Positions 1,738 to 57,233 of a stretch of DNA of 64,000 nucleotides are shown here, piece by piece. Location of the stretch: assembly GCA_964016885.1 (NCBI GenBank), contig OZ024740.1:66340001-66404000 (forward strand). Direction: 5' to 3'. The position numbers and the translations under genes were made by a program. The stretch is from Eledone cirrhosa (taxonomy: Eukaryota). The notes below the pieces were generated by a model. That model saw nothing but the letters and a program-made list of their open reading frames with translations. It was not told the origin of the DNA and did not search any database. Within the stretch, counting starts at the first letter, position 1. Each line of letters begins with the position of its first letter.

Positions 1738-1802
1738 TATTTCATTATACATATTTCAAGGACACCAAGTTAAATTATGGTGTGCTTTCATCAGATAAAA
1801 TA
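1738..1802 (-). ncRNA. Type I hammerhead ribozyme
   Basis: Minus strand: ATTTTAT-CTGATGA-AAGCACACCA(10-nt loop)TGGTGTCCTT-GAAA-TATGTA-TA-ATGAAAT. Intact core, 9/10-bp stem II, stem I of at least 7 bp. Confidence 0.75.
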
Positions 1803-5881: not shown

Positions 5882-7006
5882 ACTCTCTCTCTTCTCAACA
5901 TTTCGCTTGCGAAAAATGGTTTCGATTTATAAATATTTTGGTTAATGAACAGCCTTCAGATACAAATCAGGTTCGGGACAGCAAACAAACCGAATATTAA
6001 TAATAGTATTATATAATTATAATATTATCATTATTCACTCACGAACACACACACACATACACACGCACACATACATACATACACACACACACACAAACAA
6101 ACAAACACACAAACACGCACACACACACGCACACACACACATATATATCTATATCTACATATATATATATATATATAACCAAAGATTAGCATGGTTCGTT
6201 GATTACCCAACGAATACAATTTTACAATAGATTAGAAGCACTCAACAAAGAAGTTTTCCTGGAGTTTTTAATATTATTCAAAATGTTAACAAATGAAAAT
6301 ATTCGCATAATCAAAATATATACTTTATTATATGTATTTCAAAGGTACTGTGTTGTTTGTTCAGTACGTTTTCATCAGAAAAAATATATGATTTGATATA
6401 TGACATACCGTTACCGTCTTGATTATTCAAATCCAGTATTGGCAGTCATATTCCAGTATATATATATATATTAACAATAGCAAACACAAACACTACAGGG
6501 AGCCTCACCCCAGAAAGAATTTCTATAGACTTTTGACTGAGGAATGCTCTCAAAACTGACCAATGTGAAGAGTGACCTTACAAATCTTTATAACATTGAG
6601 ATGGGTATAACACACACACACATTTTATTCGATTATTTTATTTTATGTTGTTCCTTTACCATCTTATTCCTTCTACCACTTTATCATTTTTTTTAGCTGA
6701 CTCCAACAACAACACCACTACCAACATAAGAATAGAGGTCAGGTGTACCTAACAATAACAAGAACAACCAATACAGATTGGCTTGCCTCAGAACGAATTT
6801 CTATAGACTTTTGACTGCGGAATGTTCTAACAACTGATCAATGAGAGGAGAAGAGGCCCTTTGACTCTGAAATTCATTTGTTTAAATTCATATGATTCCA
6901 GTTCCTCAGTGAAATAACAACCCAACCAGGAACTGGGCATATCAGAGTATTGAGAAAGTTAAACACTTCAACAACATGTGTACTCGTCCCTACCACACTA
7001 ATTCGG

Positions 7007-7061
7007 ACTGCCTGAAGAGGTGATAGCCAAATATGGCTGTCACCGAAATATATATAGCAGT
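7007..7061 (+). ncRNA. Type I hammerhead ribozyme
   Basis: ACTGC-CTGAAGA-GGTGATAGCCA(AATA)TGGCTGTCACC-GAAA-TATATA-TA-GCAGT. Perfect core, 11-bp stem II, 5-bp stem I, palindromic stem III. Confidence 0.85.
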
Positions 7062-9016: not shown

Positions 9017-9964
9017 GACGCATTGTCACAGAAAAATCCGATAGCAAGCGATAAATTGATAAAATTTCAATTATTTTTAAACCGCATAGCAAGTAAAAAA
9101 AATACTTAAGAATGGTATATTGACCATGGAAACACCAGGCACCCCGATGCACTCACCCTCTTCCTATTAGATGGAGTTAGATCTCTCATCTGTGACTCCA
9201 CATGTGATACGTGCTCTGCGGTCCGCTATTTTGATGAAAGGAAGATTAACAAATACCGATGATTGTCTGGGGGCTTCTACTTCGCACCGGTCGACGTCTG
9301 GACCTCAGGCATACCTGGAACCCATACTACTGAGCTTCCCCGCAAGATCGGAACGTCGGGGGCCCATCTGAATGAGGAACCCCTCCAAGTGGGATAACTG
9401 TTGCAGCGCGTGTCGCTGGCCATTTTCCGCGTTAATGCTTTTGCGATTCTCTCCAAGGGGAGCAGCCCCAGTAGCACCACGCCCTATGCCCAGAGTCCAA
9501 TCATACTGAAACCCACTTCCCCATTCTTCTGTGACACTAGAGTTATTGACTTTCCTTTCCTTTTTCCGTTTTTTTATATTTTTATATTTTAAATTCCATT
9601 CTTTCATATCAATCATTTTTTTTCCGATTTCAATTAAATTGTATTTACACGATATATTAATTCAATTGTATGGATATAATGGATATTTTCATATTCTATA
9701 CCGTGCTATTTCATGAATGAAAAACGGAATTGCAGAGCCACGTGATTACCACTCAATCATCAGTAAAATGTTTTCATCTTACTAGACACAAATATACGAC
9801 TGTTCCCCATATCGTCAAAAGAGGTTCTGAACGCACATGGGGAGAAAAATAAATAATATGTTGATGCAGAAAAGTGAACGGGAATACTGAAAATGGCAAT
9901 GCGTTTGCTCCTATAAAATCAGATGTTCTTATACCATTGCGCCCATAACATTCGTAAAACACTA

Positions 9965-10355
9965 ATAATTGTTTCTACTTTGGCACAAGGCCAGCAATTA
10001 TTCCAGTGTATTACTGGTGCTTTATTTTATCGAACCCATAAGGATGAAAGGCAAAGTTAACCTCGGAGGGATTTGAACTCAGACAATAATTGGCCGTAAC
10101 TCTTTGCTGCAAAGCATATCGTCAGACCCTCTACCGATACTGCCCACCGGCCTAACACACTAATAATTGTTTCTACTTTTGGCACAAGGCCAGCAATTAG
10201 CCAGTGCATTACTGGTACTTTATTTTATCGACCCCGTAAGGATGAAAAGCAAAGTTAACCTCGACGGGATTTGAACTCAGAATGGCAGGGGCCGTAACTC
10301 TATGCGTCAAAACATAGCGTCCGACCTTCTACCGATCCTGCCAATCCACCGCCCC
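9965..10355 (-). mobile_element. Two tandem tRNA-derived SINE copies
   Basis: Reverse complement of the 15748 family: A-box-like TGGCAG.ATCGG, B-box GTTCAAATCC, conserved TTTCATCCTTACGGGGTCGATAAAATAAAGTACC core. Confidence 0.85.
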
Positions 10356-10696
10356 TCACACACTAATAATGTGGATATATTTGCCTCGACAATAACACAC
10401 TCTTGCATATACATATATATATATATTTGTGTGTATGTGTGTGTATGTGTGCGTGTGTGTGTTTGTGTGTGTGTGCGCGCGTGTGTGTGTGTGATTGTCT
10501 GTATGTGTGTGCGTGTGTGTATGTGTGTGTGTGTTTCCGTAGAAACAGTAAGAGAAAGAAGAGTGCTCTATGTAAATTACAGAGCTAATTAATTACATAA
10601 TAAACAACACACTATAATTATTCCATTACTTTCTTTGAACTTTTGTAAATGGAATAATTATATTGTGTTGTTTATTATGTAATTAATATATAAATA

Positions 10697-11094: not shown

Positions 11095-11134
<40 letters not shown>

Positions 11135-11140
<6 letters not shown>

Positions 11141-12160
11141 GTATGTATCTATACGTACATACATATATGTATACAGACGTACAGTAGTATGTATATATAT
11201 ACATACATGCACACATATATATACATGTACGTATGGGTTTACCGGACATTCATTATAATGTTCGGTTTGTTTGTTTGTAAGCAAACAAACAGCCCGAATT
11301 ACGCCGTACAGTGCTCGGCAACCATCGTCGCCCTTTTGTTCAACACTGACATAGGAACGATGTACTAATTTCAAGCGTATTAGCTATCGTCAGCATCGTA
11401 TACCTTTCTACCAGATGATTGAACGTCTGAAAGTATATACTTTCTTTATGCATATTAACGGCTGAGCAGCCTAATTTGCATATCGAGTGGGTTAATCGGT
11501 CAGGCGCATCGAAAATGATAAATGGAAAAGAATAAAACGAAATTTCATTTCTCACTTTTAGTACGGCTGATACTTAAATGTAAGTATTTATGTATACGTA
11601 ATACATATATGTATAGAGACGTAAAGTAGTATGTATATATATACCTACATGCATATATATATATATGTCGGTATCGGTTTACCAATCATTTATTATAATG
11701 TTCGGTTTGTTTGTTTGTAAACAAATGAACTGCCCGAATCACGCCGTACAGTGTTCAGGCAACCATCGTCACCTTTTTGTTCAACACTGACATAGCAACG
11801 ATGTACTAGTTTCAAGGTTTTTAGCTATGGTCAGCATCGTATACCTTTATGCCAGATGATTGAACGTCTGAAAGTATATATTTTCCTTATGCACATAAAC
11901 GGCTGAGCAGCCTAATTTGTATATCGAGTGAGTTAGTCAGCCGGGCGCACCGAAAACGATAAATGGAAAAGAATGAAACGAAATTTCATTTCTCACTCTT
12001 AGTGCGGCTGTTACTTAAATATAAGTATGTACACGTACATACATATACGTATACAGACGTACAGTAGTATGTATATATTTATACATACATGCACACATAT
12101 ATATGTGTACGTATGGGTTTACCGAACATTATTATTATGTTCGGTTTGTTTGTTTGTTTG
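11135..12160 (-). mobile_element. Tandem ~441-bp hammerhead-containing repeat (retrozyme-like), family A
   Basis: About 2.3 tandem units. HHR motifs on the minus strand at 11357-11399 and 11798-11840. No meaningful ORF. Confidence 0.75.
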
Positions 12161-12184
12161 TTTGTTTGTGACATACCCTTGTGA

Positions 12185-13290
12185 CATACCTTCTTTCGCC
12201 GAAAAGAAGTAAGTGACATAGTTACTACTTTAAAATGATAGCGTATGGTCTTCTAACTGTTTTTAAATAAACATATGGAATATTGCCAAATCTGCTATAC
12301 ATACATTCATGTATACATCACTATTTCAGGGCACTAATCCTAATACCTAATTTTTGCTGGATCCGCAATCGCTCTGTATAATCAGCTCCTGATTATTACT
12401 GGAATTCTATAAGAATCCAGCTCCTATAATTTTCGATTGAAGCAGGGGTGTGTGTGTCTCTGATGGACGCCAACCAGCGTGAAATATACTGTCAGCTTCT
12501 CTCCCTTCTTTCGCCGAAAATATGTAAGTGACATAGTCATTACTGTAAAATGCTAGCGTATGGTCTTCTAAATGATTTTAATTAAACATACGGTATATTT
12601 CCAAATCTACTATACATACATTCATGTATACATCGCTATTTCAGAACACCAATCCTAATACCTAATTTTTGATGGACCGCCAATCGCTTTGTATAATGAG
12701 CTCCTGATTATTACTGGGATTCTATTAGAATCCTGCTTCTATGATTTTCGGGGGGAGACGGGGAATGCTTGGCTCTGATGAATGTCAACCAGCGTGAAAC
12801 AGACTGTCAGCTTCTCTCCCTTCTCTCTCCGAAAAGAAGTAAGTGACGTAGTCACTACTTTAAAATGATAGCGTATTGTCTTCTAAATGTATTTAATTAA
12901 ACATATGGTATATTGCCAAATCTACTGTACATACATGCATGTATACATCGCTATTTCAGAGCACTAATTCTAATAGCTATTTTTGGCTGGACCGGCAATC
13001 TCTCTGTATAATCAACTCCTGAATATTACTGGAATTCCATAACAATCGGGCTCCTATAATTTCAGGCGGAAGCAAGGGGAGTTCGTGGCTCTTTTGAACG
13101 CCAACCAGCGTGAAACTGGCTGTCAGCTACACCCACTTCTTTCGCCGAAAAAGAAGTAAGTGACATAGTTACTATTTAAGACGATAGCGTATGGTGTTCT
13201 AAATGTTTTTAATTGAACATACGGTATAGTGCCAAATCTACAACACATCCATTCATGTATACATCGCTATTTCAAAGCACCAATCCTAAT
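12185..13290 (+). mobile_element. Tandem ~315-bp hammerhead-containing repeat (retrozyme-like), family B
   Basis: About 3.5 units. HHR cores start at 12460, 12775 and 13091 (periods 315 and 316). Confidence 0.75.
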
Positions 13291-13401
13291 ATATATATAT
13301 ATATACTTATGTATGTAAAAGGTAAACAGAAATAACAATCCAATCGGTACAGTGTCTGGAAGGTATATATTAGGTTAACGCTTGGTATAGCAGGAAGAGG
13401 G

Positions 13402-13437
13402 TCTTAACGTTTCGGACGCTAGTCCTTCACCAGAAGA
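13402..13437 (-). ncRNA. Minimal PLE-type hammerhead ribozyme (core variant CUGGUGA)
   Basis: Minus strand TCTT-CTGGTGA-A-GGAC(TAGC)GTCC-GAAACGTT-AAGA. Confidence 0.65.
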
Positions 13438-14153
13438 AAGAATGAGAAATAAAATAGATTAAGGGGACGGGCTGGTTGGAATTTGAAAAATTGTCTTTAG
13501 ATAAAAATAATAGGTTGACATCTCTTGCAAAACTGTTGCTGCTGGCGTTTTGTGTATGGTTTGTTTTTTAGAAATAGTGGGTTATGGCGCGCGTCTACCT
13601 GAAATGGAAAAAAACGTTTTATAAAGAGAGCTATACGTGAGCACGTGCGTAAGCATGAGTGTGTGCGTGTGTGTACTAAAGTAAAAGTTAAGTGGAAATA
13701 TCCATGCGTAAGAGCCCTCAGTCCAAGGCACTGCCTCAACACAAGTCACGACTGCTTTGGCGGTTGTTCCCAAGTGAAGAATTACATTGAGAATAAATGG
13801 CCTAGGCCAGACTAACAGGTCTAGAAGTATCTTTTGATTTATTTACTATATTGTAATTCAGTGAAATTAGATATTTTGAGTCAACTAGAAGAAATTATTG
13901 TGTTTATATTTTCATTCAAAATTGACTGTGTTCTCTCAAGAGTTACCTCCCCGCTCTTACCCTATAATTGTAAAAAAAAACATCTTTCTAAACTGTTTTC
14001 TAAGTTACCTGCTTCTGCGTAAATGTCATATTCCTATAAGGAAAGCCCAATCATCCCTAGGCGGCCATCTTCGTTGTTATTTTTCTCATGACAGGCTGAA
14101 TGAATTGGGAACCAGACCCCAACGAAGCTTGAGTACTTGTTTATTCACTTTGG

Positions 14154-14197
<44 letters not shown>

Positions 14198-14201
<4 letters not shown>

Positions 14202-15053
14202 TATGTATACGTTCATAAATATATGTATACATACGTACAGTAGTATGTATATATATATACATACATGCACACATATATTTATGTACGTATGGATTCACCG
14301 AACATTTATTATAATGCTCGGTATGTTCGTAAACAAACATCCCGAATTAAGCCGTACAGTGTCTAGCCACCATCGTTGCTCATTTGTTCAACACTGACAA
14401 AGGAACGCTGTACTAGTTTCAAGCTTATTAGCTATCGTCAGCAACGTATACCCTCCTGCCAGATGATTGAACGTCTGAAAGTATATACTTTCCTTATGCA
14501 TATTAACGGCTGAGCCGCCTAATTTGCATACCGAGTGAGTTAATCGGCCGGCGTACCGAAAACGATAAACGGAAAAAATGAAGCGAAATATCATTTCTCA
14601 CTCTTAGTACGACTGCTACTTAAATATAAGTATGTATACGGACATACATATATGTATACATAGGTTCAGTAATATGTGTATATACATACATGCACACATA
14701 TATATATGTACGTATGGATTCACAGAACATTTATTATAATGCTCGGTGTGTTTGTAAACTGACGATAGCTAATAACCTTGAAACTAGTATAGCGTTCCTT
14801 TGTCAGTTGAACAAATGAGCAACGATTGTTGCTAGACACTACGGCTTAATTCGAGATGTTTGTTTACAAACACACCGAACATTATAATAAATGTTCGGTG
14901 AATCCATACGTACATATATATATGTGCGCATGTATTTATATATATACATACTACTTTACGTCTGTATACATTTATGTATGTACGTATACATACTTATATT
15001 TAAGTAACAGCCGTACTAAGAGTGAGAAATGAAATTTCGTATCATTTTTTTAC

Positions 15054-15058
<5 letters not shown>
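14198..15058. mobile_element. Family A hammerhead repeat, direct plus inverted segments
   Basis: Homologous to 11135-12160. HHR on - at 14405-14447. Orientation flips at ~14759, where a + strand HHR core begins. Bounded by (AT)n. Confidence 0.75.
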
Positions 15059-15130
<72 letters not shown>

Positions 15131-15437
15131 CAATATATTAATAAATGGAAACTATATTTATAAAACCATAATTATTTTATTATATATATTTCAAGGAGAT
15201 AGTGTTATATAGTTATAGAGGTACGTATACACATTTTAATTTATATTTTTAATTATTGTGTGTCTACCCTGCCTTTCATAGGTTATAGATTCCATACACT
15301 GGTGTTGTTTTCCCTGTTTTGTTGATGGCGCACTATGTCTCTTTCAACATATTGTATTTTAAAGAGCTCGGGATTCCTTTTCTTTTGAGCACATTATTGA
15401 CAGGGAATAGTGAGAGTATATGGCTCCGTTAATTTAT

Positions 15438-15480
<43 letters not shown>

Positions 15481-15747
15481 AAAATGAGTTTTCCTTTTAA
15501 TTTAATAAAATGAAATGCCCTACACGGTTGAAAGTGTAAGGAAAAGAAATTAAAAATGCAAATGGAATCTTTTTAAAAATATTTATTTATTTCCTTTACC
15601 GGTTTCACAGTTCTTATACTTTTCAAAAGTAGAATTGAGATGGATATGTTGTGGATTTTCTCACCTTTGTTTGGTGTTCAAATGTTCTTCCTGATTTCTG
15701 TGGAAACTGTAGCTCGAATTGCAGTTTGTTATATATATATATATATA

Positions 15748-15931
15748 AGGGCGGTGAATTGGCAGTATCGGTAGAGGTTCGGACGCCATGCTTTCCAGCA
15801 TAGTTACGTCCCTTTACGATCTGAGTTCAAATCCCGCCGAGGTTGACTTTGCCTTTCATCCTTACAGGGTCGATAAAATAAAGTACCAGTAATGCACTGG
15901 GTAATTGCTGGCCTTGTGCCTAAAGTAGAAA
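15748..15931 (+). mobile_element. tRNA-derived SINE
   Basis: GGGCGG...TGGCAGTATCGG (A box)...GAGTTCAAATCCC (B box), then a conserved core resembling the MetaSINE domain. About 14 copies or fragments in the window. Confidence 0.88.
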
Positions 15932-16639
15932 GAGTTATATATATATATATTTGCTTGGTTGATGACTGCCACGTGAATAAGTACGATAAATTACGCACCA
16001 GTTTGCGTTCCAAAGTTCTTGTTGTATTGCCTTTAAAAATGTGACTCGATTTGTTTTTGTTTTTTTATAAGTGTAATTGACTGTCACATGAATGAGTACA
16101 ACACATTTCGCGCCATTTCGTGTTTGAGGGTTCTTAAATGCCATTTACACAGTCACATGACTGGCCATATAATATAGGATCCAGAAAAGGATGGTTTGTC
16201 ATTGAAAGTTTCGTGCCAAACAAAAGATAATGGTCAAGAAATGGGAGTGGGAGAAATAGTTCTGGTTCAATAAGTACAGCTTATGTCGAGCTGAAGTGTC
16301 ACATTTCAGACTTTTTCTTGAAATAAATTGAATATTTGTGTCGATAGTGGCAGCGGCGCCGATGGTGGTGGCTGGTGGAAAAGAGAAATATATATATTTT
16401 TTTTTTATGTGTAGCAAAGCAGTTTATAGTCTTGATAATAGAAATAAAAAAGATTCCATTAGTGGAAACGGCGAACGAGGTTATGTGTGTGTATTGGTTA
16501 GCATGTTAAGGTGTTAAAATATTAACGAATGTTAAAGTATATTTAACTCTGTTCTATTATTTTCGAATATAGGGACGGGTGTGTGTGTGTACGTGGATGG
16601 TTAGCATGTTATGGTGTTAACATATTAACGTATATTAAA

Positions 16640-17800
<1,161 letters not shown>

Positions 17801-18109: not shown

Positions 18110-18474
18110 GCCAGTTTCAATTGCTTGTGAGATATATTGAAACCGACATATATAAGCGCGATTATACTTACTTTCACATACAGACACATGCACGCGCACA
18201 CACGCAAACACACACGTACATGTATATTGCATTATATATCAAATATATTATATATATCTTGCTATATTTGGTGATGGTCATATTTGATTGAGAGTGTGCG
18301 AATGTGTACGTATATAAGTTATTCAGTTGAAGTACCTCAATCGCAAGATACAATATGAATTATAACATCAACTTTAGACAAATCATTCAAATAGATATAC
18401 TCTCACCACACATAAATGCACACTCACACACAAGCACACAGACACACACTCACACACATATATATATAATAGTA

Positions 18475-18685
18475 GTAATTGTTTCTACTTTAGGCACAAG
18501 CCAGCAATTTTGGGAGGGGAGTAATATTGATTAAATCGACCCCAATACATTACTGGTGCTTTATATTATTGATCCCGTAAGTATGAAAACCAAAGCTAAC
18601 CTCGATGGTATTCGAACCAATACCGTAAAGGGGCATACCTCTACGCTGCAAAGCATAGTTTTCTACGCTCTACCGATACTGCCAT
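18475..18685 (-). mobile_element. tRNA-derived SINE (diverged)
   Basis: Reverse-complement similarity to the 15748 family. Confidence 0.75.
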
Positions 18686-19394: not shown

Positions 19395-19398
<4 letters not shown>

Positions 19399-20482
19399 CT
19401 CGTTTTGAAACACGAAAGCACCAAAAGATCATATTCCATTACAAAAGATGCACAAAGATACAGTAATGGACTACAAATTTCAGAAGTCCCATTTACTGCT
19501 GAAATGGAAAACACAGAAAAAGCAAAGCAGGTAAAAGTAACTGCAAAGAAAGAACTGCTACAGAAACTGGCTAAGAAATGGCAAGAAAAGCCTCTGTATG
19601 GAAAATACCCAGAGCGAGCTAACAATCCTGATGTTGACAAAACTTTAACCCATCAGTGGTTGGCATCCTCTGGACTGAAATCGGAGACTGAAGGACTGAT
19701 TATCTCCGCACAAGATCAGTGTCTGCCAACAAAAAATTACCAAGCCAACATAATAAAAAATGGGTGCAGCCCATTATGCCGTGTATGCAAAAAACAACCA
19801 GAGACCATTGACCATATAATTTCAATGTGCAGTCCTATAGCTCCAACCGAATACCTAAACAGGCATGACAGAGCTGCACAATACATACATTGGATAATGT
19901 GTAAGCATTTTGACCTGCCCCATCAAAAGAACTGGTGGGAGCATCAACCACCTCCCATACTTGAAAAAGATCACATCTCAATCTTGTGGAACTTTAGCAT
20001 CCAAACAGACCGAAAAATAGATGCAAATAGACCTGATATAATATTGAAGGACTTTCAAAGGAGGGTATGCCTGCTAATTGATATGTCTGTTCCAATAGAC
20101 AAGAATGTATCTATAAAAACATTTGAAAAATTGAGCAAGTATAAGGACCTGGAGATAGAAATTGGAAAAATGTGGAAATTGAGAACTAAAACAATACCAG
20201 TGGTTGTAGGCGCTCTGGGAATGATACCTAAGGGGTCTAACGACTACTTATCGCAAATCCCAGGAAACCCGCGTATAGGAGAAATACAAAAGATAGTACT
20301 AATGGGAACTGCCCATATACTAAGGAAGATCCTGTCAATATAAGTACATCACAACTCTAAACACTAAGGATGCATGTGTGAATATGTGTGTTCTTTCTTG
20401 AACATGGCGGACCTTGTTGTCTCTTGAGGTCACTGGTTGTGACTTGGTGATAACTCGTATAAACATAAAGCAAGATAAATGC
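19395..20482 (+). mobile_element. R4/Dong-clade LINE, 5'-truncated (CCHC finger + restriction-like endonuclease)
   Basis: Open frame to 20343 with CRVC...ETIDHIISMC, RHD, RPDII...IDMSVP and K..KY motifs. Flanked by (TAA)n on both sides. Same family as 57234-59867. Confidence 0.92.
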
Positions 20483-20506
20483 AAATAATAATAATAATAA
20501 TAATAA

Positions 20507-20537
<31 letters not shown>

Positions 20538-20779: not shown

Positions 20780-20930
20780 AATGCTTCCTGATTTAGACAC
20801 AGGTCAGCAATTAAGGGGAAGACGAAAGGGGATAAATTTGACTCCACTGCATTACTGATTCTTTATTTTATCGACCCCATATGTATTAAAGGCAAAGCTA
20901 ACTTCGGCTAGATTTAAACTCAGAAAGTAC
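20780..20930 (-). mobile_element. SINE fragment
   Basis: Contains the family core TTTATTTTATCGACCCC...AAGGCAAAG...TTTAAACTCAG. Confidence 0.65.
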
Positions 20931-21059
20931 ACAGACGCAAGTCTATGCCGCAAACCAAATAAACCGCTCACAGGTTGACACTTTGCAAGGTTTGTGAAAG
21001 AAGCAGAATAAAATGAAGTCTGAAATAATAATAAATATATCTTTATATTATATTGACTA

Positions 21060-23015: not shown

Positions 23016-23029
23016 TATCATTATTAGTC

Positions 23030-23205
23030 AGTGGGTGGATTGGCAGTATAGGTAGAGAGTCGGACACCATGCTTTGAAGCATAGAATTACGTCCCTTTAT
23101 GATCTGAGTTCAAATCCCGCCTTTCATCCTTACGGGTTCGAGAAAATAAAGTACCAATAATACACTGGGTAATTGCTGGCTTGTGCCAAAAGTAGAAACA
23201 ATTAT
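23030..23205 (+). mobile_element. tRNA-derived SINE
   Basis: Same family as 15748; A and B boxes present. Confidence 0.85.
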
Positions 23206-25693: not shown

Positions 25694-25775
<82 letters not shown>

Positions 25776-25874
25776 AAATTGAGGTTGGTAATGGCACATG
25801 GAATATATAAGAGACAGAATACTTTTTTGTGAAAAAACATAATTTTATAAGGTAAGGAAATAATAAAGGGTATA

Positions 25875-25924
25875 AAAAATGACCGGTTTCGATGGGTCTG
25901 CAAAAGCCATCTTTTCAAATGTTC
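25875..25924 (-). ncRNA. Hammerhead ribozyme in 3' pseudo-LTR (U3-A8 core variant)
   Basis: TTGAAAA-GATGG(CTTTTGCAGAC)CCATC-GAAA-CCGG-TC on the element's sense strand. Confidence 0.7.
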
Positions 25925-26195
25925 ATTAATATTAAGAAAAATTAATAATACGAAGAGTTAAAATTTGAGACTTGAAAATTCAAGTATAAAATTCATTGTG
26001 GGATTTCATAGCAGTTTTCATCTAGGTAGCAACAACAGGTTGACTGCTGTGTCCCTTTCTGGTAGTGAATGAGAAGTTATTTGGGGTGTGGGTTATTTTA
26101 TAAAGGTCAGATTTAGCAATAGCCAGCTGCTGGTCAGTGAGGGGGTGGAAGCAATATACACACACATACCTTCATCCACACATACATACACATAC

Positions 26196-26248
<53 letters not shown>

Positions 26249-26317
26249 CACACATACATACACACACACATACATATACATACACACATACACACACACA
26301 CACATATATATACACAT

Positions 26318-26374
<57 letters not shown>

Positions 26375-26405
26375 TATATATACATACACATACATCCAGA
26401 TACAC

Positions 26406-26454
<49 letters not shown>

Positions 26455-26459
26455 CACAC

Positions 26460-26507
<48 letters not shown>

Positions 26508-26559
26508 CCACACATACATACACACACACATATATATATACATACACACATACAAACAT

Positions 26560-26590
<31 letters not shown>

Positions 26591-26796
26591 CACACATACA
26601 CACACATATATATACACACACACACACACACATGCATATATATATATATATATACACATACGCATACATCCAGATACCCACATACATACACACACACACA
26701 CACACACGCACACACAATACATACATCCACATGCACACACATACTCACACACACACACACACACATACACACACCCACACACAGAGAAATGGCCTT

Positions 26797-26832
<36 letters not shown>

Positions 26833-27065
26833 CAGACACATATATTTTTTCCATAATATAAGAAGTTGGGGCAGTGAAATTAAAATAATTCTGTGTGCGC
26901 ATATATATATAGATATACGTGTGTGCACGTGCAGGGTTTAACATGGATGTGTTGGTCACACAAAGGCATGGTCTGTCAATGAATAAACCTGATTCTACAG
27001 AATTGGTCTCTGGTCTTTAATAGTAGTGATTCCGTGCGTATGTGTGTTTATATTTTATGACAATT

Positions 27066-29342
27066 CTATTGGGGTGATAACCCGTTTAGTTTTGGTTTAA
27101 ATTTGTTAAGGAATAGATTTTCTTTGTTTATTCTTTGTTGTTGTGTGAACGAATCTGAGCACTTGTAGAAGGAGAAGATTTTAAAGTTGGGTAGTGTCAT
27201 TCCTGCGCAGTTCGCAATATGGCTGCTCAAGGGGATTTTTCTTGTGTTAGCGTCCCGGATTTGTTGGCGGTGGATGGTCATTCTTTTGCGTAATGAGGTG
27301 CCCGTCTGTCCTATGTAGTTGTGTTTGCACCCACCGCAAGTTATTGCGTAAATCAAGTTCTCCGAGTTGCAGGTGAAATTGTTTTTTACTGTAAATGTTT
27401 GGCCATCTTTGAATGTAAATGTTTGTCCTTCAGTGAGGTAGAGGCACGTTCCACAGTTTGTTCTACCACATTTGGTAACTGTAGGGTTGAGGATTGGTTT
27501 GGGTATATTTGGTCCAGTGAGAATGCGTTTAAGTGATTTGGGTTGTCTTTTACTTTTAAGGATCTTGTGTGTTTCAAGAATAGACTTCATTTTTACATCT
27601 TTAAGTAGGATGGGGAGGTTTTTGTGTAGGTGATCAAACATTTCGGTATTTCTGGGGTTGAAAGTGGATACATATGGCAGGGTGTTGAGTGTGGTTTTCT
27701 GTTTTGGATTGTTAAGTTGATGGGGATTTAGGTGTTTTGCCCTGTCTATTCCATTGTTGATTATTTCAAGTGGAAAGGCTCTTAAGATAAGGGTGTCTTT
27801 TAGTTCCTTTAGTCTTTGCTCCCGTTTAGGTGGATCTGATACTATGGTACATATACGTTTGGCCAAATTGTAAGGAATGTTAAGTTTTGTATGTTTTGGG
27901 TGACTTGATGTGAAAAAGAGGTATTGCTTGGAATCTGTGGGTTTATAGAATATATCTGTATCTAATTTCCCGTCTATTACAGAGATGAGAATATCCAAGA
28001 AGGCTAATTCCTTAGGATTGGATTCCATTGTGAATTGTATGTTATTATCTATGTTGTTTATCATGTTTTTAAACGTAGTAAGTGAGTTCATGTCTTCTTG
28101 CCATAGGATAAAGCAGTCGTCTAGATATCTTTTCCAATTGGCTTTGAGGTGTGTGTGGAAAGAGTCTCCAAATAAGAGAAGGGACTGACTGTATATTTGT
28201 TGTTCATGGAATCCCATGACTAGGTTGGCATATGTGGGTGCTACTTTCGTGCCCATTGCCGTACCTGATACTTGTCTGTATGTTGAACCATTGAATGTGA
28301 AGTAGTTATTTTGTAGGATAAAGCGGAGTCCGTCAGTGATAAAATCTGTGTTGATGCGTGTCGGTATTTCTGATGGGTGTGTGTTAAGCCAGTATTGGAC
28401 TGCTGTTATTCCATAGTTGTGAGGTATGTTTGTGTAGAGGTTTATTACGTCAAAGGAGACAAGAATTGTATTTGCACTTACTGTTTTAGGGAGGTGTTTC
28501 AGCATGTCAAGGTCATCTCGTATGTAGCTCTGTATATGTTGTAGAAAGGGTTTCAGTAGGATGTCCAGAAAGTTGCTAAGTCTGTGGGTTTCACATGTAG
28601 GGCCTGCTATAATTGGCCTGAGTTTTAGGTCTTCTGGTGGTGTTAGTTCAATGTAATTGTTGGTTGAGGTGTCACATGCATCGTTTATGGGTTTACATTT
28701 GTGAAGTTTCGGTAACCCGTAAAAAGAGCTTGTATTGCATTTGAAGTGGCTTATATAGTTAAACTCTTTTGTGGTTAAGCTGTTGCGGTATTTATTCAGT
28801 AAGGTCAAAAGGTTCCCCATTGTTTTGGTGTGTTTGTAGTTTTCTGTTTTTTCATAGTATGTGTTGTTTTCTAAAATGTTAAGTGCGAGGGTCCTATAGT
28901 AGTCCGTATTCATAATCACAACAGTACTGCCTTTATCGGCTTCTTTGATAGTTATCTCAGGGTTGTTTCTAAGTGTGAATAATTCTTCCCATTCGTGTGT
29001 AGATAGGTTTGATTTCGTGTGTTTATTTGTAATTGTTTCATAGGGAAAGTTGGTGATGTGTTCGCAGTACGTGTCCAGTGCTTTATTTCTTCCCTTTTGT
29101 GGGCAGAAATTGCTTTTATTTCTAACCAGTGATTCGTCTTCAGTGTTGGTGTCGTTGTGGAAGAATTCCGTTAGTCGCAGCTTTCGGCAGTATTCCATGA
29201 TGTCATCCTTCATTTCGGGGAAGTTTGGTTTACGTGGTGTAGGTGTAAATTTCAGGCCCTTACTTAAAATGTTGATTTGTGTGTTGGTTAGAGGTGTCTT
29301 TGAGAGGTTGATTATTTTTGGTTTCTCCTGAGGGGGGGCCAT
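27066..29342 (-). CDS. PLE reverse transcriptase + GIY-YIG endonuclease (ORF2; probably translated as a -1 fusion entering at 29372)
   Basis: 758-aa uninterrupted ORF. RT motifs FDVINLYTNIP, GTAMGTKVAPTYANL, WKRYLDD, FLDI, YKPT and SSHP; Cys linker CGRTNCGTC; NLIYAITCGGCKHNYIGQT (GIY-YIG). Confidence 0.96.
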   Translation of the reverse strand: MAPPQEKPKIINLSKTPLTNTQINILSKGLKFTPTPRKPNFPEMKDDIMEYCRKLRLTEFFHNDTNTEDESLVRNKSNFCPQKGRNKALDTYCEHITNFPYETITNKHTKSNLSTHEWEELFTLRNNPEITIKEADKGSTVVIMNTDYYRTLALNILENNTYYEKTENYKHTKTMGNLLTLLNKYRNSLTTKEFNYISHFKCNTSSFYGLPKLHKCKPINDACDTSTNNYIELTPPEDLKLRPIIAGPTCETHRLSNFLDILLKPFLQHIQSYIRDDLDMLKHLPKTVSANTILVSFDVINLYTNIPHNYGITAVQYWLNTHPSEIPTRINTDFITDGLRFILQNNYFTFNGSTYRQVSGTAMGTKVAPTYANLVMGFHEQQIYSQSLLLFGDSFHTHLKANWKRYLDDCFILWQEDMNSLTTFKNMINNIDNNIQFTMESNPKELAFLDILISVIDGKLDTDIFYKPTDSKQYLFFTSSHPKHTKLNIPYNLAKRICTIVSDPPKREQRLKELKDTLILRAFPLEIINNGIDRAKHLNPHQLNNPKQKTTLNTLPYVSTFNPRNTEMFDHLHKNLPILLKDVKMKSILETHKILKSKRQPKSLKRILTGPNIPKPILNPTVTKCGRTNCGTCLYLTEGQTFTFKDGQTFTVKNNFTCNSENLIYAITCGGCKHNYIGQTGTSLRKRMTIHRQQIRDANTRKIPLSSHIANCAGMTLPNFKIFSFYKCSDSFTQQQRINKENLFLNKFKPKLNGLSPQ

Positions 29343-30577
29343 CGAGTATCCTGGTATTTCAGGCTTTTCCCTAAAAAAGGAATGTAGTTTTGTGTGTGAT
29401 TATATTTTGTTGGTCTGTTGCGTGTGGGTCTGTAGCTTGTTGTTTCATGAGGGTGAATGTGATGGTGGGGGTGGTATGTGTTGTGGTTGTTGATGAGCAA
29501 GGGTTCTGTTGTTGGTTCATGTGGTCTGGGTGCGTTATTTCTGTGGTACAGAGTGTTAAGGCTGGGGGGTTGTCTTTTGTTGGATTGAGGGTGATGTCTG
29601 GTGTGGTTGTGGGTAAGTTCTGTTGTGATTTCAAGTGGCCTGGGTGGATTTCTTCTGAGGAATGTGGTGTGTGTGTTGTGAGTTGGATCTATGTTATTTC
29701 GTCGTTGGTTTATGTAGGGGGCATTTCTACGGAAACCTGTGTTGTGGTGGTTGGGTGTGTTTCTTTTGGTGTAGTTGGCCGTATTTGGTTTGTGTTGGTG
29801 GGGGATGTGCCTGTGGTTAGTGTGTGTTGGGTTTGGTGGTGTAAATGTGTCTGTTGTAGTTCTTGTTATGTTCAAATGCTTTATAAAGGGGTTACCTGTT
29901 TGGTGCGTCCTTTTAAAGTCTTCTTCATATTTGAGGAACCAGTTTTCGGATTTTTCCCACCGTTTAAGGGAAATAGTTTCTGCATTCTCGCAGTCCTGTT
30001 TCCACGATTTGATTAAATTTTGTAGGGTTGTTCCCTCGGCCTTTTTAGTGCATTCTTCCTCCATATTTTTATCAGTATCCTTATACTCTTGCTCGTTTGA
30101 GGTGGCCCTTAATTTTAGGAGTTCTATTTCCATGTTTATCCTGTTGAGTGACATTTGTTCACGGAGTTTTCTTTCTGGTTCAGGTTCGTTTGTAATATGC
30201 TTTATTTGGAATTTACGTGGTAAAACTATCGGTGTTGAGTTAATCCATTTTTGGTAAATTCCAGCTTTGTTGAGGTTTTTTATCATATTCCAGAAAGTGA
30301 ATTTTCTGGTTTTTAGATGTTTTTTCCAGAGGTGTCCCATTTGGTTTTTGATATGGAGCAATGTCGTTTGTTCTGTGTTGGTATTCATAAGTTTTTCGAT
30401 GGATTTGCATACGTTTTGAACGTTTAAATAAATTTGGTCGTCAGTCGGTGTGGTGGTTTGGGGTATATCCTGTTTTTTTGTCAGAATGGTGAGTTTTCCA
30501 TTTATCTCTTTTAGGATTTTCAGGATTTCCTCATTGATATTGGAGTTTGAAGTGGTGTTGTCTTGTTCCAGTGCCAT
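29312..30577 (-). CDS. PLE ORF1: helical/coiled-coil-like N-terminus with His/Thr/Asn/Pro-rich tail
   Basis: 421-aa uninterrupted ORF starting just inside the 5' pseudo-LTR and overlapping ORF2, which lies in the -1 frame. Confidence 0.8.
   Translation of the reverse strand: MALEQDNTTSNSNINEEILKILKEINGKLTILTKKQDIPQTTTPTDDQIYLNVQNVCKSIEKLMNTNTEQTTLLHIKNQMGHLWKKHLKTRKFTFWNMIKNLNKAGIYQKWINSTPIVLPRKFQIKHITNEPEPERKLREQMSLNRINMEIELLKLRATSNEQEYKDTDKNMEEECTKKAEGTTLQNLIKSWKQDCENAETISLKRWEKSENWFLKYEEDFKRTHQTGNPFIKHLNITRTTTDTFTPPNPTHTNHRHIPHQHKPNTANYTKRNTPNHHNTGFRRNAPYINQRRNNIDPTHNTHTTFLRRNPPRPLEITTELTHNHTRHHPQSNKRQPPSLNTLYHRNNAPRPHEPTTEPLLINNHNTYHPHHHIHPHETTSYRPTRNRPTKYNHTQNYIPFLGKSLKYQDTRWPPLRRNQK
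29372..29378 (-). promoter_or_regulatory. Candidate -1 ribosomal frameshift slippery site U_UUU_UUA
   Basis: Minus strand CCT TTT TTA GGG AAA, correctly phased in ORF1. The -1 frame is open into ORF2. Confidence 0.7.
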
Positions 30578-30745
30578 TTTCCGGATTTGCGTAGGTTAGT
30601 ATATATGAAAAGTGTAATTTTCTACACAAAACGAAGGTTATAGAGAAAATTGAGGTTGGTAATGGCACATGGAATATATAAGAGACAGAATACTTTTTTG
30701 TGAAAAAACATAATTTTATAAGGTAAGGAAATAATAAAGGGTATA

Positions 30746-30795
30746 AAAAATGACCGGTTTCGATGGGTCTGCAAAAGCCATCTTTTCAAATGTTC
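30746..30795 (-). ncRNA. Hammerhead ribozyme in 5' pseudo-LTR (U3-A8 variant)
   Basis: Identical to 25875-25924. Confidence 0.7.
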
Positions 30796-30998
30796 ATTAA
30801 TATTAAGAAAAATTAATAATACGAAGAGTTAAAATTTGAGACTTGAAAATTCAAGTATAAAATTCATTGTGGGATTTCATAGCAGTTTTCATCTAGGTGG
30901 CAACAACAGGTTGACTGCTGTGTCCCTTTCTGGTAGTGAATGAGAAGTTATTTGGGGTGTGGGTTATTTTATAAAGGTCAGATTTAGCAATAGCCTCT

Positions 30999-32852
30999 AC
31001 GTAATAAACCTCTACACAAACATACCTCACAACTATGGAATAACAGCAGTCCAATACTGGCTTAACACACACCCATCAGAAATACCGACACGCATCAACA
31101 CAGATTTTATCACTGACGGACTCCGCTTTATCCTACAAAATAACTACTTCACATTCAATGGTTCAACATACAGACAAGTATCAGGTACGGCAATGGGCAC
31201 GAAAGTAGCACCCACATATGCCAACCTAGTCATGGGATTCCATGAACAACAAATATACAGTCAGTCCCTTCTCTTATTTGGAGACTCTTTCCACACACAC
31301 CTCAAAGCCAATTGGAAAAGATATCTAGACGACTGCTTTATCCTATGGCAAGAAGACATGAACTCACTTACTACGTTTAAAAACATGATAAACAACATAG
31401 ATAATAACATACAATTCACAATGGAATCCAATCCTAAGGAATTAGCCTTCTTGGATATTCTCATCTCTGTAATAGACGGGAAATTAGACACAGATATATT
31501 CTATAAACCCACAGATTCCAAGCAATACCTCTTTTTCACATCAAGTCACCCAAAACATACAAAACTTAACATTCCTTACAATTTGGCCAAACGTATATGT
31601 ACCATAGTATCAGATCCACCTAAACGGGAGCAAAGACTAAAGGAACTAAAAGACACCCTTATCTTAAGAGCCTTTCCACTTGAAATAATCAACAATGGAA
31701 TAGACAGGGCAAAACACCTAAATCCCCATCAACTTAACAATCCAAAACAGAAAACCACACTCAACACCCTGCCATATGTATCCACTTTCAACCCCAGAAA
31801 TACCGAAATGTTTGATCACCTACACAAAAACCTCCCCATCCTACTTAAAGATGTAAAAATGAAGTCTATTCTTGAAACACACAAGATCCTTAAAAGTAAA
31901 AGACAACCCAAATCACTTAAACGCATTCTCACTGGACCAAATATACCCAAACCAATCCTCAACCCTACAGTTACCAAATGTGGTAGAACAAACTGTGGAA
32001 CGTGCCTCTACCTCACTGAAGGACAAACATTTACATTCAAAGATGGCCAAACATTTACAGTAAAAAACAATTTCACCTGCAACTCGGAGAACTTGATTTA
32101 CGCAATAACTTGCGGTGGGTGCAAACACAACTACATAGGACAGACGGGCACCTCATTACGCAAAAGAATGACCATCCACCGCCAACAAATCCGGGACGCT
32201 AACACAAGAAAAATCCCCTTGAGCAGCCATATTGCGAACTGCGCAGGAATGACACTACCCAACTTTAAAATCTTCCCCTTCTACAAGTGCTCAGATTCGT
32301 TCACACAACAACAAAGAATAAACAAAGAAAATCTATTCCTTAACAAATTTAAACCAAAACTAAACGGGTTATCACCCCAATAGAATTGTCATAAAATATA
32401 AACACACATACGCACGGAATCACTACTATTAAAGACCAGAGACCAATTCTGTAGAATCAGGTTTATTCATTGACAGACCATGCCTTTGTGTGACCAACAC
32501 ATCCATGTTAAACCCTGCACGTGCACACACGTATATCTATATATATATGCGCACACAGAATTATTTTAATTTCACTGCCCCAACTTCTTATATTATGGAA
32601 AAAATATATGTGTCTGTATGTATATATATATATATATATATATTTGAAGGCCATTTCTCTGTGTGTGGGTGTGTGTATGTGTGTGTGTGTGTGTGTGAGT
32701 ATGTGTGTGCATGTGGATGTATGTATTGTGTGTGCGTGTGTGTGTGTGTGTGTGTATGTATGTGGGTATCTGGATGTATGCGTATGTGTATATATATATA
32801 TATATATGCATGTGTGTGTGTGTGTGTGTGTATATATGTGTGTGTATGTGTG

Positions 32853-32883
<31 letters not shown>

Positions 32884-32935
32884 ATGTTTGTATGTGTGTA
32901 TGTATATATATATGTGTGTGTGTATGTATGTGTGG

Positions 32936-32983
<48 letters not shown>

Positions 32984-32988
32984 GTGTG

Positions 32989-33023
<35 letters not shown>

Positions 33024-33062
33024 ATGTATGTGTGTATCTGGATGTATGTGTATGTATATATA

Positions 33063-33123
<61 letters not shown>

Positions 33124-33190
33124 ATGTGTATATATATGTGTGTGTGTGTGTATGTGTGTATGTATATGTATGTGTGTGTATGTATGTGTG

Positions 33191-33239
<49 letters not shown>

Positions 33240-33695
33240 GTATGTGTATGTATGTGTGGATGAAGGTATGTGTGTGTATATTGCTTCCACCCCCTCACTG
33301 ACCAGCAGCTGGCTATTGCTAAATCTGACCTTTATAAAATAACCCACACCCCAAATAACTTCTCATTCACTACCAGAAAGGGACACAGCAGTCAACCTGT
33401 TGTTGCTACCTAGATGAAAACTGCTATGAAATCCCACAATGAATTTTATACTTGAATTTTCAAGTCTCAAATTTTAACTCTTCGTATTATTAATTTTTCT
33501 TAATATTAATGAACATTTGAAAAGATGGCTTTTGCAGACCCATCGAAACCGGTCATTTTTTATACCCTTTATTATTTCCTTACCTTATAAAATTATGTTT
33601 TTTCACAAAAAAGTATTCTGTCTCTTATATATTCCATGTGCCATTACCAACCTCAATTTTCTCTATAACCTTCGTTTTGTGTAGAAAATTACACT

Positions 33696-33706
<11 letters not shown>
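30999..33706 (+). mobile_element. Inverted 5'-truncated copy of the same Penelope-like element
   Basis: Starts mid-RT (mirror of 28450), stop codon at 32383, then 3' UTR and pseudo-LTR ending in (TA)n. Near-identical to the minus copy, with one S/P change (KIFSF vs KIFPF). Confidence 0.95.
33511..33560 (+). ncRNA. Hammerhead ribozyme in pseudo-LTR of the inverted copy
   Basis: GAACAT-TTGAAAA-GATGG...CCATC-GAAACCGGTC-ATTTTT. Predicted cleavage after 33554. Confidence 0.7.
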
Positions 33707-39918: not shown

Positions 39919-40044
<126 letters not shown>

Positions 40045-40089
40045 CATACGTTCAGTAATATGTGTATATACATACATGCACACATATAT

Positions 40090-41046
40090 ACTAGACATGA
40101 AAAATGCGCAAGCTCAAAAGTGCCACAGAATGTTATAATAAACCTTCAAAAGTGTGGGACTAGAGTTGTTGCTAAAAAATATTGTAATCATTATATATCG
40201 TACATTCTGTGGCATCCTTTATAAAAATAGCTTAAACCAACGAAGCCTTTATTTTTACGCTATTTCACTTAGTTAATTCTTAGAGTGTAACATATAAAAA
40301 TATGATTTACAACTATAAAATAAATTAATTAATATAATAACAGAGCTGCGGAGCTGAAATTTAGGAAATAATGGAGTATCGGATCCTGAGTTGGAGCCAG
40401 TCAATTTTTGGCCGACTCCGCAGCCCTGTATAATACATTTCATATTAAAGTTATTAATAAACCTATTTTACACTTCATGCAAATTACCACGAGATATTGA
40501 TATTAGATATAAGATACAGCGCAATATCTACAGCTGTAAAAGTACGAAAGCGAAGTAATAATAAGTGGCTTAAGGTAATTCCAATATGAAAGTTTGTAGT
40601 GATAAAAATTTGATAATGCAATACGATTGTTAATATTATAGTTCTATGAAAATGTAACAATAGATAACTAAATTATTTTACTATTAGTATATTTAAGAAA
40701 TTATCATTATAGATTTGATCGTTCATATAAGCATCATATTAATTTTCAACACAATTATTTTGTTACTATGAGTATATGATAATAATATTACGTAATTATT
40801 TATAGCTGTTATTACATTAAACATAGATGTATTTATTTTTATATGTTACACTCTAAGAATTAACTAAGTGAAATAGCGTAAAAATAAAGGCTTCGTTGGT
40901 TTAAGCTATTTTTATAAAGGATGCCACAGTATGTACGATATATAATGATTACAATATTTTTTAGCAACAACTCTAGTCCCACACATTTGAAGGTTTATTA
41001 TAACATTCTGTGGCACTTTTGAGCTTGCGCATTTTTCATGTCTAGT
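40090..41046. mobile_element. Foldback/MITE-like element with ~210-bp terminal inverted repeats
   Basis: 40090-~40301 is the near-perfect reverse complement of ~40835-41046 (ACTAGACATG...CATGTCTAGT). Confidence 0.8.
40341..40428. mobile_element. hAT-like miniature element
   Basis: TIRs CAGAGCTGCGGAG / CTCCGCAGCCCTG; 8-bp TSD TATAATAA / TATAATAC. Confidence 0.75.
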
Positions 41047-41604
41047 TTAATATTTTTTTAAGGCAACGCTTGTAATAACTCTAGTTAAACAGGATATATA
41101 TTAATAATAAATTATCGTTGTAATGTAATTACATTATGTAATTGTTATTATAAATTAACTTATAAATATTAGTGTAAGATGTATAAAAATATTTTCAGAC
41201 TTTTAATATAAACAACTACAAAAAACAATCAATATTAAATCAATATATTATACATAATAGAAAACATAAAATATACAATACAAAAACAAAATATTTACAT
41301 ACAATTGCAATTATCAGTTTATATACATTTTCTTTATATTCCCTGAGCAAATTAATAAGATTTGTTTTTATTGTACATAATTTGATGACTTGTTGGAGTG
41401 TATTAAAAGATAGCAACAATTTGTGATTAAATTGTTATCTTAAGCAACTCACTTTTTAATAGTTGTTGGCTGAGCGAAATTGTAAAAGCCTATGAGCAAA
41501 TATAAAAAAAAATACACAAACAACATTTCCTTGTGTTATTACAACATTAGATAAAATAATTGAGCCATGTCGTTATATTTTGCTCTTATTGCACATTAAT
41601 AGTG

Positions 41605-43637: not shown

Positions 43638-43991
43638 ATATATGTACGTATGGATTCACCAAACATTTATTATAATGCTCGGTGTGTTTGTAAACTGACG
43701 ATAGCTAATAACCTTGAAACTAGTATAGCGTTCCTTTGTCAGTTGAAGAAATGAGCAACGATGGTTGCTAGACACTACGGCTTAATTCGAAATGTTTGTT
43801 TACAAACACACCGAGCATTATAATAAATGTTCGGTGAATCCATACGTACATATATATATATGTGTGCATGTATTTATATATATACATACTACTGTACGTC
43901 TGTATACATTTATGTATGTACGTATACATATTTATATTTAAGTAACAGCAGTACTAAGAGTGAGAAATGAAATTTCGTATCATTTTTTTAC

Positions 43992-44058
<67 letters not shown>

Positions 44059-44712
44059 TATAATTATATATGGAAAAAATGAAACGAAATTTCATTTCTC
44101 ACTCTTAGTATTAAATATCAGTATGTATATATACGTACATACATATATGTATACAGACGTACAGAAGTATGTATATATATACATACATGCACACATATAT
44201 ATATGTACGTATGGATTTACCGACCATTTATTATAAAGCTCGATTTGTTTGTAAACAAGCATCCCGAATTAAGCCGTACAATGTTTAGCAACTATCGTTG
44301 CTCTTTTGTTCAACACTGTCAAAGGAACGATGTACTAGTTTCAAGCCTATTACGTATCGTCAGCACCGTATACCTTCCAGCCAGATGACTGAAGTCTGAA
44401 GGTATATACTTTCCGTATGCATATTAACGGCTGAGCAGCCTAATTTGCATATCGAATGAGTTAATCGGCCGAGCGCACCGAAAACGATAAATGGAATAAA
44501 TGAAACGAAATTTCATTTCTCACTCTTAGTACGGCTGTTACCTAAATATAAGTAATTAATTCGGGATGTTTGTTTACAAAGAAACCGAGCATTATAATAA
44601 ATGCTCGGTAAATCCATACGTACATATATATATGTGTGCATGTATGTATATATATACATACTACTGTACGTCTGTATACATATATATATGTACGTATATA
44701 TACATACTTATA
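43638..44712. mobile_element. Family A hammerhead repeat with multiple inversions
   Basis: 43640-43997 nearly duplicates 14705-15058. HHR core on + at 43695-43730 and on - at 44327-44369. Confidence 0.75.
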
Positions 44713-44808
44713 TTATAGTTATATATTCTTTTACTCTTTTACCTGTTTCAGCCATCCGGCTGAGGCCATGCTGGGTCACCACCCTTGATATCTATATATA
44801 TACAACAA

Positions 44809-57195: not shown

Positions 57196-57233
57196 ATTAT
57201 TATTATTATTACTAGCATTATTATTATTACAGC

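Follow-up and report, generated by a model that had tools for sequence, protein, structure and literature searches.

Judged from its sequence, the 441-bp repeat that we call family A is an animal non-LTR retrozyme, a new member of a class already known, and the ends of its copies look PLE-type, which supports the mobilisation of retrozymes by PLEs. Our preferred explanation, to which we assign a probability of roughly 0.78, is that family A was copied into (AT)n by a PLE RT/GIY-YIG protein through two-ended target priming. The evidence base is one window, i.e., the whole 64-kb stretch of Eledone cirrhosa DNA that was analysed (Table 1).

Table 1 Features of families A and F and of the neighbouring PLE in the 64-kb window
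Feature	Position	Strand	Description
Locus A left arm	11139..12170	-	2.3 units; 3' end site 1 (~222-229) into (AT)n 11098-11137
HHR A1	11352..11406	-	intact core; predicted cut GUA^ after 11363
HHR A2	11793..11847	-	core G8C and C.C mismatch in stem II
A/F head-to-head junction	12168..12188		without (AT)n; filler with two copies of an F-unit 8-mer
Family F, locus A right arm	12189..13291	+	315-bp unit, 3.5 copies, one type I HHR-like motif per unit
Locus B left arm	14198..14758	-	1.3 units; 3' end site 1 (221-229), (AT)n 14158-14199
HHR B1	14400..14454	-	sole copy with every element intact; predicted cut after 14411
Locus B right (inverted) arm	14759..15059	+	starts at C3 (unit 411); 3' end site 2 (~286)
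PLE	25770..33699	left arm -, right arm +	left arm 30995-25770; inverted 5'-truncated right arm 30999-33699; arms ~99% identical
Fragment D	40014..40090	-	lacks HHR; left end indistinct against (AT)n; right end unit 142
Second copy of locus B inversion junction and right arm	43638..43997	+	96.7% over 425 bp with AT tail
12-bp AT-rich direct repeat around locus C	44051-44062 and 44714-44725		no other occurrence in the window
Locus C left arm	44063..44555	-	1.15 units, unit 214-218 to 286-290 (site 2)
HHR C1	44322-44376	-	2/3 stem II pairs broken
Locus C right (inverted) arm	44556..44713	+	unit ~62-227; 3' end site 1

Structure and distribution of family A

The ~441-bp tandem repeat of the preliminary description was confirmed by Tandem Repeats Finder as a period-441 array at 11141-12157 (2.3 copies, 87% matches). 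Self-comparison of the window recovered the unit at 14198-15059 (locus B) and 43638-44713 (locus C), and a short HHR-less piece at ~40014-40090 brings the number of places to four, one more than the three loci listed before. Units lie head-to-tail and in register (2.3, 1.3, and 1.15 units at loci A, B, and C, respectively). The unit therefore recurs as had been claimed, but arrays of more than two units are found at 11.1 kb only, with inverted arms added at loci B and C. Full copies are 86-90% identical, and the two units of locus A (A1 vs A2, 89%) are no closer to each other than are dispersed copies.

The array has a GC content of 35% and contains no M-started ORF >59 codons on either strand at locus A, in agreement with the earlier view of the arrays as non-coding. 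There is no ORF start within the unit, nor do ORFs separate the units of loci A, B, and C. The window has no tRNA genes, and family A carries no tRNA-derived head. When unit A was compared with 10 targets and unit F with 8 (PLE parts, other HHR ends), all z values were <1.4 except a single z of 3.1 between unit A and a remnant at 6.2-6.7 kb. Unit-A words were partially present in 20 rows from 12 studies among the sequencing runs listed, none holding at least half of them (best 0.42), and one other coded organism in that list held 0.21; the remaining shares were small and carry no evidential weight, and the list named no RNA run.

Non-LTR retrozymes are described as non-coding, AT-rich, head-to-tail repeats of a few hundred bases with a type I hammerhead (HHR) (PMC7229834), and the proposed match of family A to this metazoan class holds for unit, GC content, HHR, and head-to-tail order. 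Its 441-bp non-coding unit falls within the published range (150-450 bp; PMC7229834; 10.64898/2026.07.22.740005), its GC content is below the 50% that bounds the class, and it shares with animal non-LTR retrozymes one type I HHR per unit, a candidate target-site duplication (TSD) of >4 bp, and the presence of PLEs in the genome. Unlike the animal retrozymes described in these texts, family A consists mostly of two-armed inverted insertions of 1-2 units with defined 3'-end sites, has no homology to the PLE at hand, and is known from DNA alone.

Anatomy of the insertions

All three loci are head-to-head, two-armed insertions, with left arms on the minus and right arms on the plus strand; the truncated 5' ends meet centrally, and the RNA 3' ends point out to (AT)n or AT-rich targets on either side. 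Positions within the unit are numbered from the base after the cut. The 5' end of A-left lies in a short (ACAA)n run at unit ~88 and that of B-left at unit ~89, and the 3' end of B-right runs into (AT)n 15057-15126. The earlier statement that arrays are mostly bounded by (AT)n is correct for A-left, B-left, and B-right, whereas both ends of locus C lie in the AT-rich 12-mer beside (AT)n. For comparison, an (AT)4+ run lies no more than 15 nt away from ~5% of window positions. The 12-bp direct repeat around locus C is a candidate TSD.

The 3' ends fall at two sites ~62 nt apart: site 1 (unit 221-229) in A-left, B-left, and C-right, and site 2 (286-290) in B-right and C-left. At both loci made of family A only (B and C), one arm ends at site 1 and the other at site 2. 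These ends avoid the longest AT runs of the unit (138-152, 161-171). For the five arms, clustering has P=0.014 if 10 AT-rich sites are taken as available and P=0.059 if there are 6; a uniform-model value of 2e-5 for six ends was dropped, the end of fragment D being blurred into a microsatellite. Family A arms cross the cut sites, no 3' end lies at a cut, and the ends show short AT microhomology with the target. In 13 of 14 hand-listed HHR-like motifs, the nearest (AT)6+ run is closer downstream than upstream, two of these runs falling inside the family A unit itself.

PMC8557442 counts among PLE features inverted copies with a 5' truncation, a one-ended tail, and insertion at (TA)n. According to PMC11167929, the PLE protein makes a nick in each strand of AT-rich DNA, two internal initiation sites bound the tail, and initiation proceeds without homology to the target, so that the AT microhomology at the family A ends speaks against a PLE origin. 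Based on their inverted arms, two 3'-end sites, and (AT)n targets, the family A copies thus support the PLE mobilisation that the preliminary description had proposed. Tails, inverted arms, and two-family insertions of retrozymes are undescribed in the literature covered, from which the supplements of PMC7229834 and of the preprint (10.64898/2026.07.22.740005) and most subscription papers fall outside; those supplements may list family A or its ends. In the text of the preprint (Li et al.), the word 'tail' occurs 0 times and 'inverted' solely in a reference.

Hammerhead copies and their state

The minus strand of each full unit reads CUGACGA-U-AGC-loop-GCU-U-GAAA-CUAG-UA between two 6-nt arms, with C3 at 11393, 11834, 14441, and 44363 (positions in the motif follow hammerhead numbering). 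This geometry is that of the canonical metazoan type I HHR, for which PMC4209133 gives 6 bp in helix I, 4 bp in helix II, and 1-2 bp with a palindromic loop in helix III. Six family A copies hold the HHR core, one intact, one weak, and four broken; hence one HHR per unit, as previously described, is right for the presence of the motif in each full unit, but B1 alone has it intact. In A1, stem I has 6 bp with a UAU/U loop, the base of stem II is U.U, and stem III is a weak AUUAGU (self-duplex -0.2 vs -4.8 kcal/mol); the palindrome ACUAGU, attributed earlier to stem III in general, is found in B1 and not in A1. A2 is predicted to be inactive because G8C abolishes hammerhead cleavage in PMC11167929. 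Both inverted copies (14759 and 43695) start only at C3, with the 5' arm missing from stem I.

Because only one of the six HHR copies is intact, no locus in the window can release a monomer by two cuts, and the processing to a ~440-nt circle proposed in the preliminary description would have to start elsewhere if it relies on two intact HHRs. Li et al. (10.64898/2026.07.22.740005) define an 'active' retrozyme by two consecutive units with complete HHRs and saw cleavage in only 1/9 of the dimers tested; the window holds no such pair, its sole dimer having a G8C unit. The window copies of family A appear to be mostly decayed products rather than sources.

A second ACGAUG, identical to the 5' arm of stem I, lies ~30-45 nt after the cut (e.g., 11315-11335, minus strand). 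In the modelled circular fold, its pairing with the 3' arm can block the HHR; alternatively, it hides in its own small hairpin, the loop of which varies among copies. This extra arm could possibly work as an on/off switch.

Evidence for the hammerhead fold

Five exact-core motifs, two of them in family A, were detected in the window by a generic descriptor that demands the exact core and a stem I of >=5 bp and tolerates a mismatch at the stem II base; 30 simulated windows gave 0 each. A descriptor demanding a pair at 10.1-11.1 misses family A. With a pattern drawn from the family A copies themselves, five exact cores were found in the window and 0 in 100 shuffles, the sixth copy carrying G8C. 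Rfam gave 0 hammerhead hits at the gathering threshold across the whole window, and its 65 matches at E<=5 within 11100-14640 did not include a hammerhead. Its miRNA matches fall in the AT-rich part and were taken as composition effects.

One scan of metagenome contigs with a pattern of core, stem II, and stem III returned one locus, L001. This contig of 1153 bp contains a ~1075-bp direct repeat (92%) as well as four TAACCC words, and it has only 31 nt (the HHR core) in common with the window. Its stem I, which lies outside the search pattern, differs in sequence and pairs over 6 bp, the same UAU/U loop, and 4 bp (chance of the 6+4 pairs, 7.7e-5). The HHR fold is supported because L001 keeps the core with a different yet fully paired stem I, a support that comes from one independent sequence. 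In the non-coding repeat of this contig (L001:740-960), the same HHR variant is followed by the TAACCC words, recalling telomere-attached EN-minus PLE ends. Pattern scans of viral contigs gave 0 strict and 3 loose matches (stem I in 0/3, best model score 11.6 bits), and 0 matches were found in prokaryote genomes.

When covariation was checked in a five-row alignment that includes L001, stem I was paired in 30/30 cells, and all six of its pairs showed two-sided changes, five via L001 and one via B1. The stem I variants CGATG/CATCG, CGTTG/CAGCG, and CGGTG/CATCG are as first written and do keep pairing between copies, but covariation within family A amounts to two wobble changes at one pair. Slid controls pair at 29-45% vs 91% for the alignment; 12/15 stem II cells are paired in addition to U.U, and A-U with CUAG is kept in stem III in 4/5 rows. 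The expectation that the HHR core is better conserved than the rest of the unit was not measurably borne out within the window: 1/48 core cells differ (expected ~3; P=0.15), and 11/172 cells differ in the stem-to-stem region against a background of 6.8%. Decaying copies would be expected to show such a lack of excess; still, it lends the HHR no support.

A double-HHR model of B1 reaches -22.6 kcal/mol vs -2.9 (stem III closed) or -8.3 (open) for the monomer. Unconstrained folds of all four full copies favour a non-HHR structure by 1.4-4.1 kcal/mol, and as circles the units fold better than shuffles (z -3.2 and -5.2; 40 shuffles). Taken at the level of sequence, the type I hammerhead motif of family A is real.

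By description, family A resembles axolotl HHR_Amex1 in its single-pair stem III with a palindromic tetraloop as its cap and the active HHR_Amex2 in the U.U at the stem II base, both of which are more active as dimers (PMC7229834). In contrast to these two, the family A motif unites the two weakening features and carries a GUA triplet.

A duplicated inversion junction

The stretch 14702-15124, with the inversion junction of locus B, recurs at 43638-44062 at 96.7% identity. Since the junction recurs between unrelated flanks, a composite whose HHR is disabled has been copied, either through retrotransposition or through conversion between (AT)n tracts. The break in fragment D, at unit 142, coincides with the start of the 43638 copy, and by eye the fragment is closest to the partial unit of locus B. 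It is probably the missing left part of the 43638 copy, split off by 3.5 kb of later insertions. Beside it lies an element with 216-bp inverted ends that are 98.6% identical (40087-41049). Directly left of the duplicated junction is a small palindrome with perfect 19-bp arms (43578-43640), unrepeated in the window.

Family F and the A/F junction

The right arm of locus A consists of family F, which has no sequence in common with family A and no second copy in the window. Its HHR-like motifs have C3 at 12460, 12775, and 13091 (exact core in 12775 only), with A-U at the stem II base and a GUC triplet. The 5' end lies ~10 nt past a cut site and the 3' end at (AT)n 13289-13304. The filler at the A/F junction appears to be templated from the F unit, and end-joining is a process that can leave templated filler. 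As the simplest reading of the 12.17 kb junction, A and F would have been co-inserted from two RNAs; alternatively, there may have been two successive insertions, with the intervening AT lost. Other stretches between (AT)n runs (13306-14157, 15127-15441) may be further head-to-head pairs of different elements.

The neighbouring PLE and other elements

The PLE at 25.8-33.7 kb has (AT)n at both ends and a ~32-nt tail on the right arm only. Its left-arm frames (30595-29312 and 29399-27066) cover RT, a CX4CXXC linker, and GIY-YIG, with domain matches at E 4.6e-7 for RT and, in the inverted arm, E 6.3e-6 for GIY-YIG. The frames overlap at U UUU UUA GGG (29355-29385, minus strand), a slippery-site pattern, with a predicted hairpin 8 nt downstream; the frame change may be a programmed -1 shift or a homopolymer indel in the run. 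In the literature searched, frameshifts in PLEs surfaced in a figure legend only. The linker is a Neptune/Nematis feature (PMC8557442). The intact helper PLE announced in the preliminary description is thus present with both RT and GIY-YIG, but in two overlapping frames instead of one ORF.

In anatomy, this PLE matches family A (a minus arm, an inverted truncated arm, outer (AT)n, and extra nucleotides on one end). Its proposed role as the helper found no backing in sequence: unit A has no detectable similarity to its pLTR (z -1.1) or body (z 1.2), and when the two tails were compared, 70% of shuffles were as good, with no common tail motif. No resemblance was found between the 3' ends of family A and the window PLE. 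The nearby PLE is one candidate helper only, because it has no detectable sequence in common with unit A and other PLE remains exist in the window. An older remnant at 16644-17674 (minus strand) has 39-47% amino acid identity to the young PLE. PLE-type HHR-like motifs were seen at 1746-1794 (-), 6328-6378 (-), 7012-7056 (+), 9699-9763 (-), 13395-13427 (-), 15128-15197 (-), 25880 (-), and 33520-33557 (+); most point to a nearby (AT)n, and 15135-15197 is 92% like 1700-1762.

In addition, a ~200-bp SINE-like family occupies about ten places, several ending at microsatellites (9955-10370, 15744-15938, 18466-18684, 20843-20960, 23020-23209, 35632-35860, 41592-41770, 51764-51952, 52608-52766, 59907-60114). 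Two LINE-type RT fragments were noted (48854-49720, minus strand; 57197-59750, minus strand, with 19395-20515), and 52752-56343 and 60205-63775 are a 3.6-kb duplicate at 84%.

Discussion

The unit, the HHR fold, the ORF-less head-to-tail junctions, the two-armed insertions, the two 3'-end sites, and the AT targets are read directly in the sequence. In the proposed mechanism, a source copy elsewhere would be transcribed on the HHR strand and HHR cleavage would take place at GUA; with a stem III of a single A-U pair and a palindromic cap, the HHRs would probably act as dimers. The template for copying would be a multimer or a circle. The PLE protein would nick both strands of the (AT)n target, and reverse transcription would begin at an internal position of the RNA, either ~225 or ~288 nt past the cut. 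Two cDNAs would grow towards each other, their truncated 5' ends being joined by end-joining.

The same architecture is described for PLEs and their dependants. Like the EN+ PLEs Neptune and Nematis, family A has partial tandems, an inverted 5'-truncated arm, a one-ended tail, and (TA)n as its target (PMC8557442, PMC11167929), as well as an HHR 100-290 nt before the 3' end (PMC8557442, PMC11167929, PMC4209133). It differs from them in the absence of an ORF and in its canonical rather than minimal HHR (PMC4209133), and its tail is ~62 nt vs the 30-40 nt described for PLEs. Non-autonomous Chlamys elements such as MRC1 are comparable in being non-coding, depending on PLEs, and building pLTRs and head-to-tail copies, but they mostly lack an HHR, and their 3' ends are like those of the autonomous partner (PMC8557442).

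A rival that differs from the preferred explanation solely in the template is that family A moves as a linear, uncut, non-autonomous PLE transcript, with the HHR inherited and occasionally needed. We consider this possible, though doubtful. It would account for the lack of a 3' end at the cut site, the four broken HHRs among six, and the disabled-HHR inversion junction present twice at 96.7% between unrelated flanks, and it agrees with PMC11167929, in which HHR mutants insert unimpaired in vitro and no PAc RNA ends at the cut. However, in-register arms of more than one unit at three loci fit a circular template, the 5' end of family F lies ~10 nt past a cut site, the units fold better than shuffles when circular, and related repeats yield circles in coral, mussel, and axolotl (PMC7229834). 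It is improbable that family A is instead the detached pLTR of a coding PLE family outside the window, the arms being 5'-truncated PLE ends. The insertion anatomy equals that of PLE ends, several other HHR-bearing ends in the window sit at (AT)n, and 24/57 Xenopus retrozyme families are TE-homologous, nearly all to PLE termini (Li et al., 10.64898/2026.07.22.740005). Against it, the ORF-less in-register junctions at loci A, B, and C and the lack of an ORF start in the unit uphold the earlier position that the unit is not merely such a pLTR, and the HHR is canonical, not the long-stem-II minimal form of metazoan PLEs (PMC4209133). Derivation from a pLTR is possible for family A; being one now is not supported.

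Explanations that leave PLEs aside fare worse. A minisatellite spread at the DNA level by unequal exchange and (AT)n conversion, with the HHR as a relic and the inversions as repair products, could explain why A1 and A2 resemble each other no more than they do dispersed copies, and 43638-44062 could be a DNA-level copy. We regard it as very improbable given that all 3' ends point outward, the end sites recur at two positions, a candidate 12-bp TSD is present, and the loci have no homologous flanks; this polarity is also seen in the PLE and family F. Hardly any credence attaches to mobilisation by a LINE or to the HHR motif as a chance match. LINE-type RT ORFs are present in the window (48.9 and 58.5 kb), but self-comparison gave no common 3' end or other similarity with family A, and internal two-site ends with inverted arms are described for PLEs (PMC8557442, PMC11167929). 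A chance match is excluded by the descriptor counts, the five-row alignment, and the stem I probability.

A further and tentative proposal, which we think rather less likely to be true than not, is that PLE integration is a two-template event, in which the two nicked (AT)n strands each prime on a separate RNA, one at each of the two internal sites. RNAs of unrelated families could then be joined (A with F at 12.17 kb), composites with a disabled HHR could be recopied (14.7 and 43.6 kb), and neither cleavage nor a circle would be necessary for spread. If this proposal is true, retrozyme ends would map the RNA signal that the PLE protein reads in trans, without common sequence, and two-family insertion would explain the origin of the inverted PLE structure.

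Rfam misses the variant HHR of family A, with its U.U at the stem II base, one-pair palindromic stem III, and GUA triplet, implying that such families are under-counted. PLE mobilisation of animal retrozymes has so far been argued from co-occurrence, common HHRs, and pLTR homology (PMC7229834; 10.64898/2026.07.22.740005). The insertion ends of family A provide more direct evidence for it and point to two testable initiation sites, and family A lends itself as a template to the in vitro PLE system of PMC11167929.
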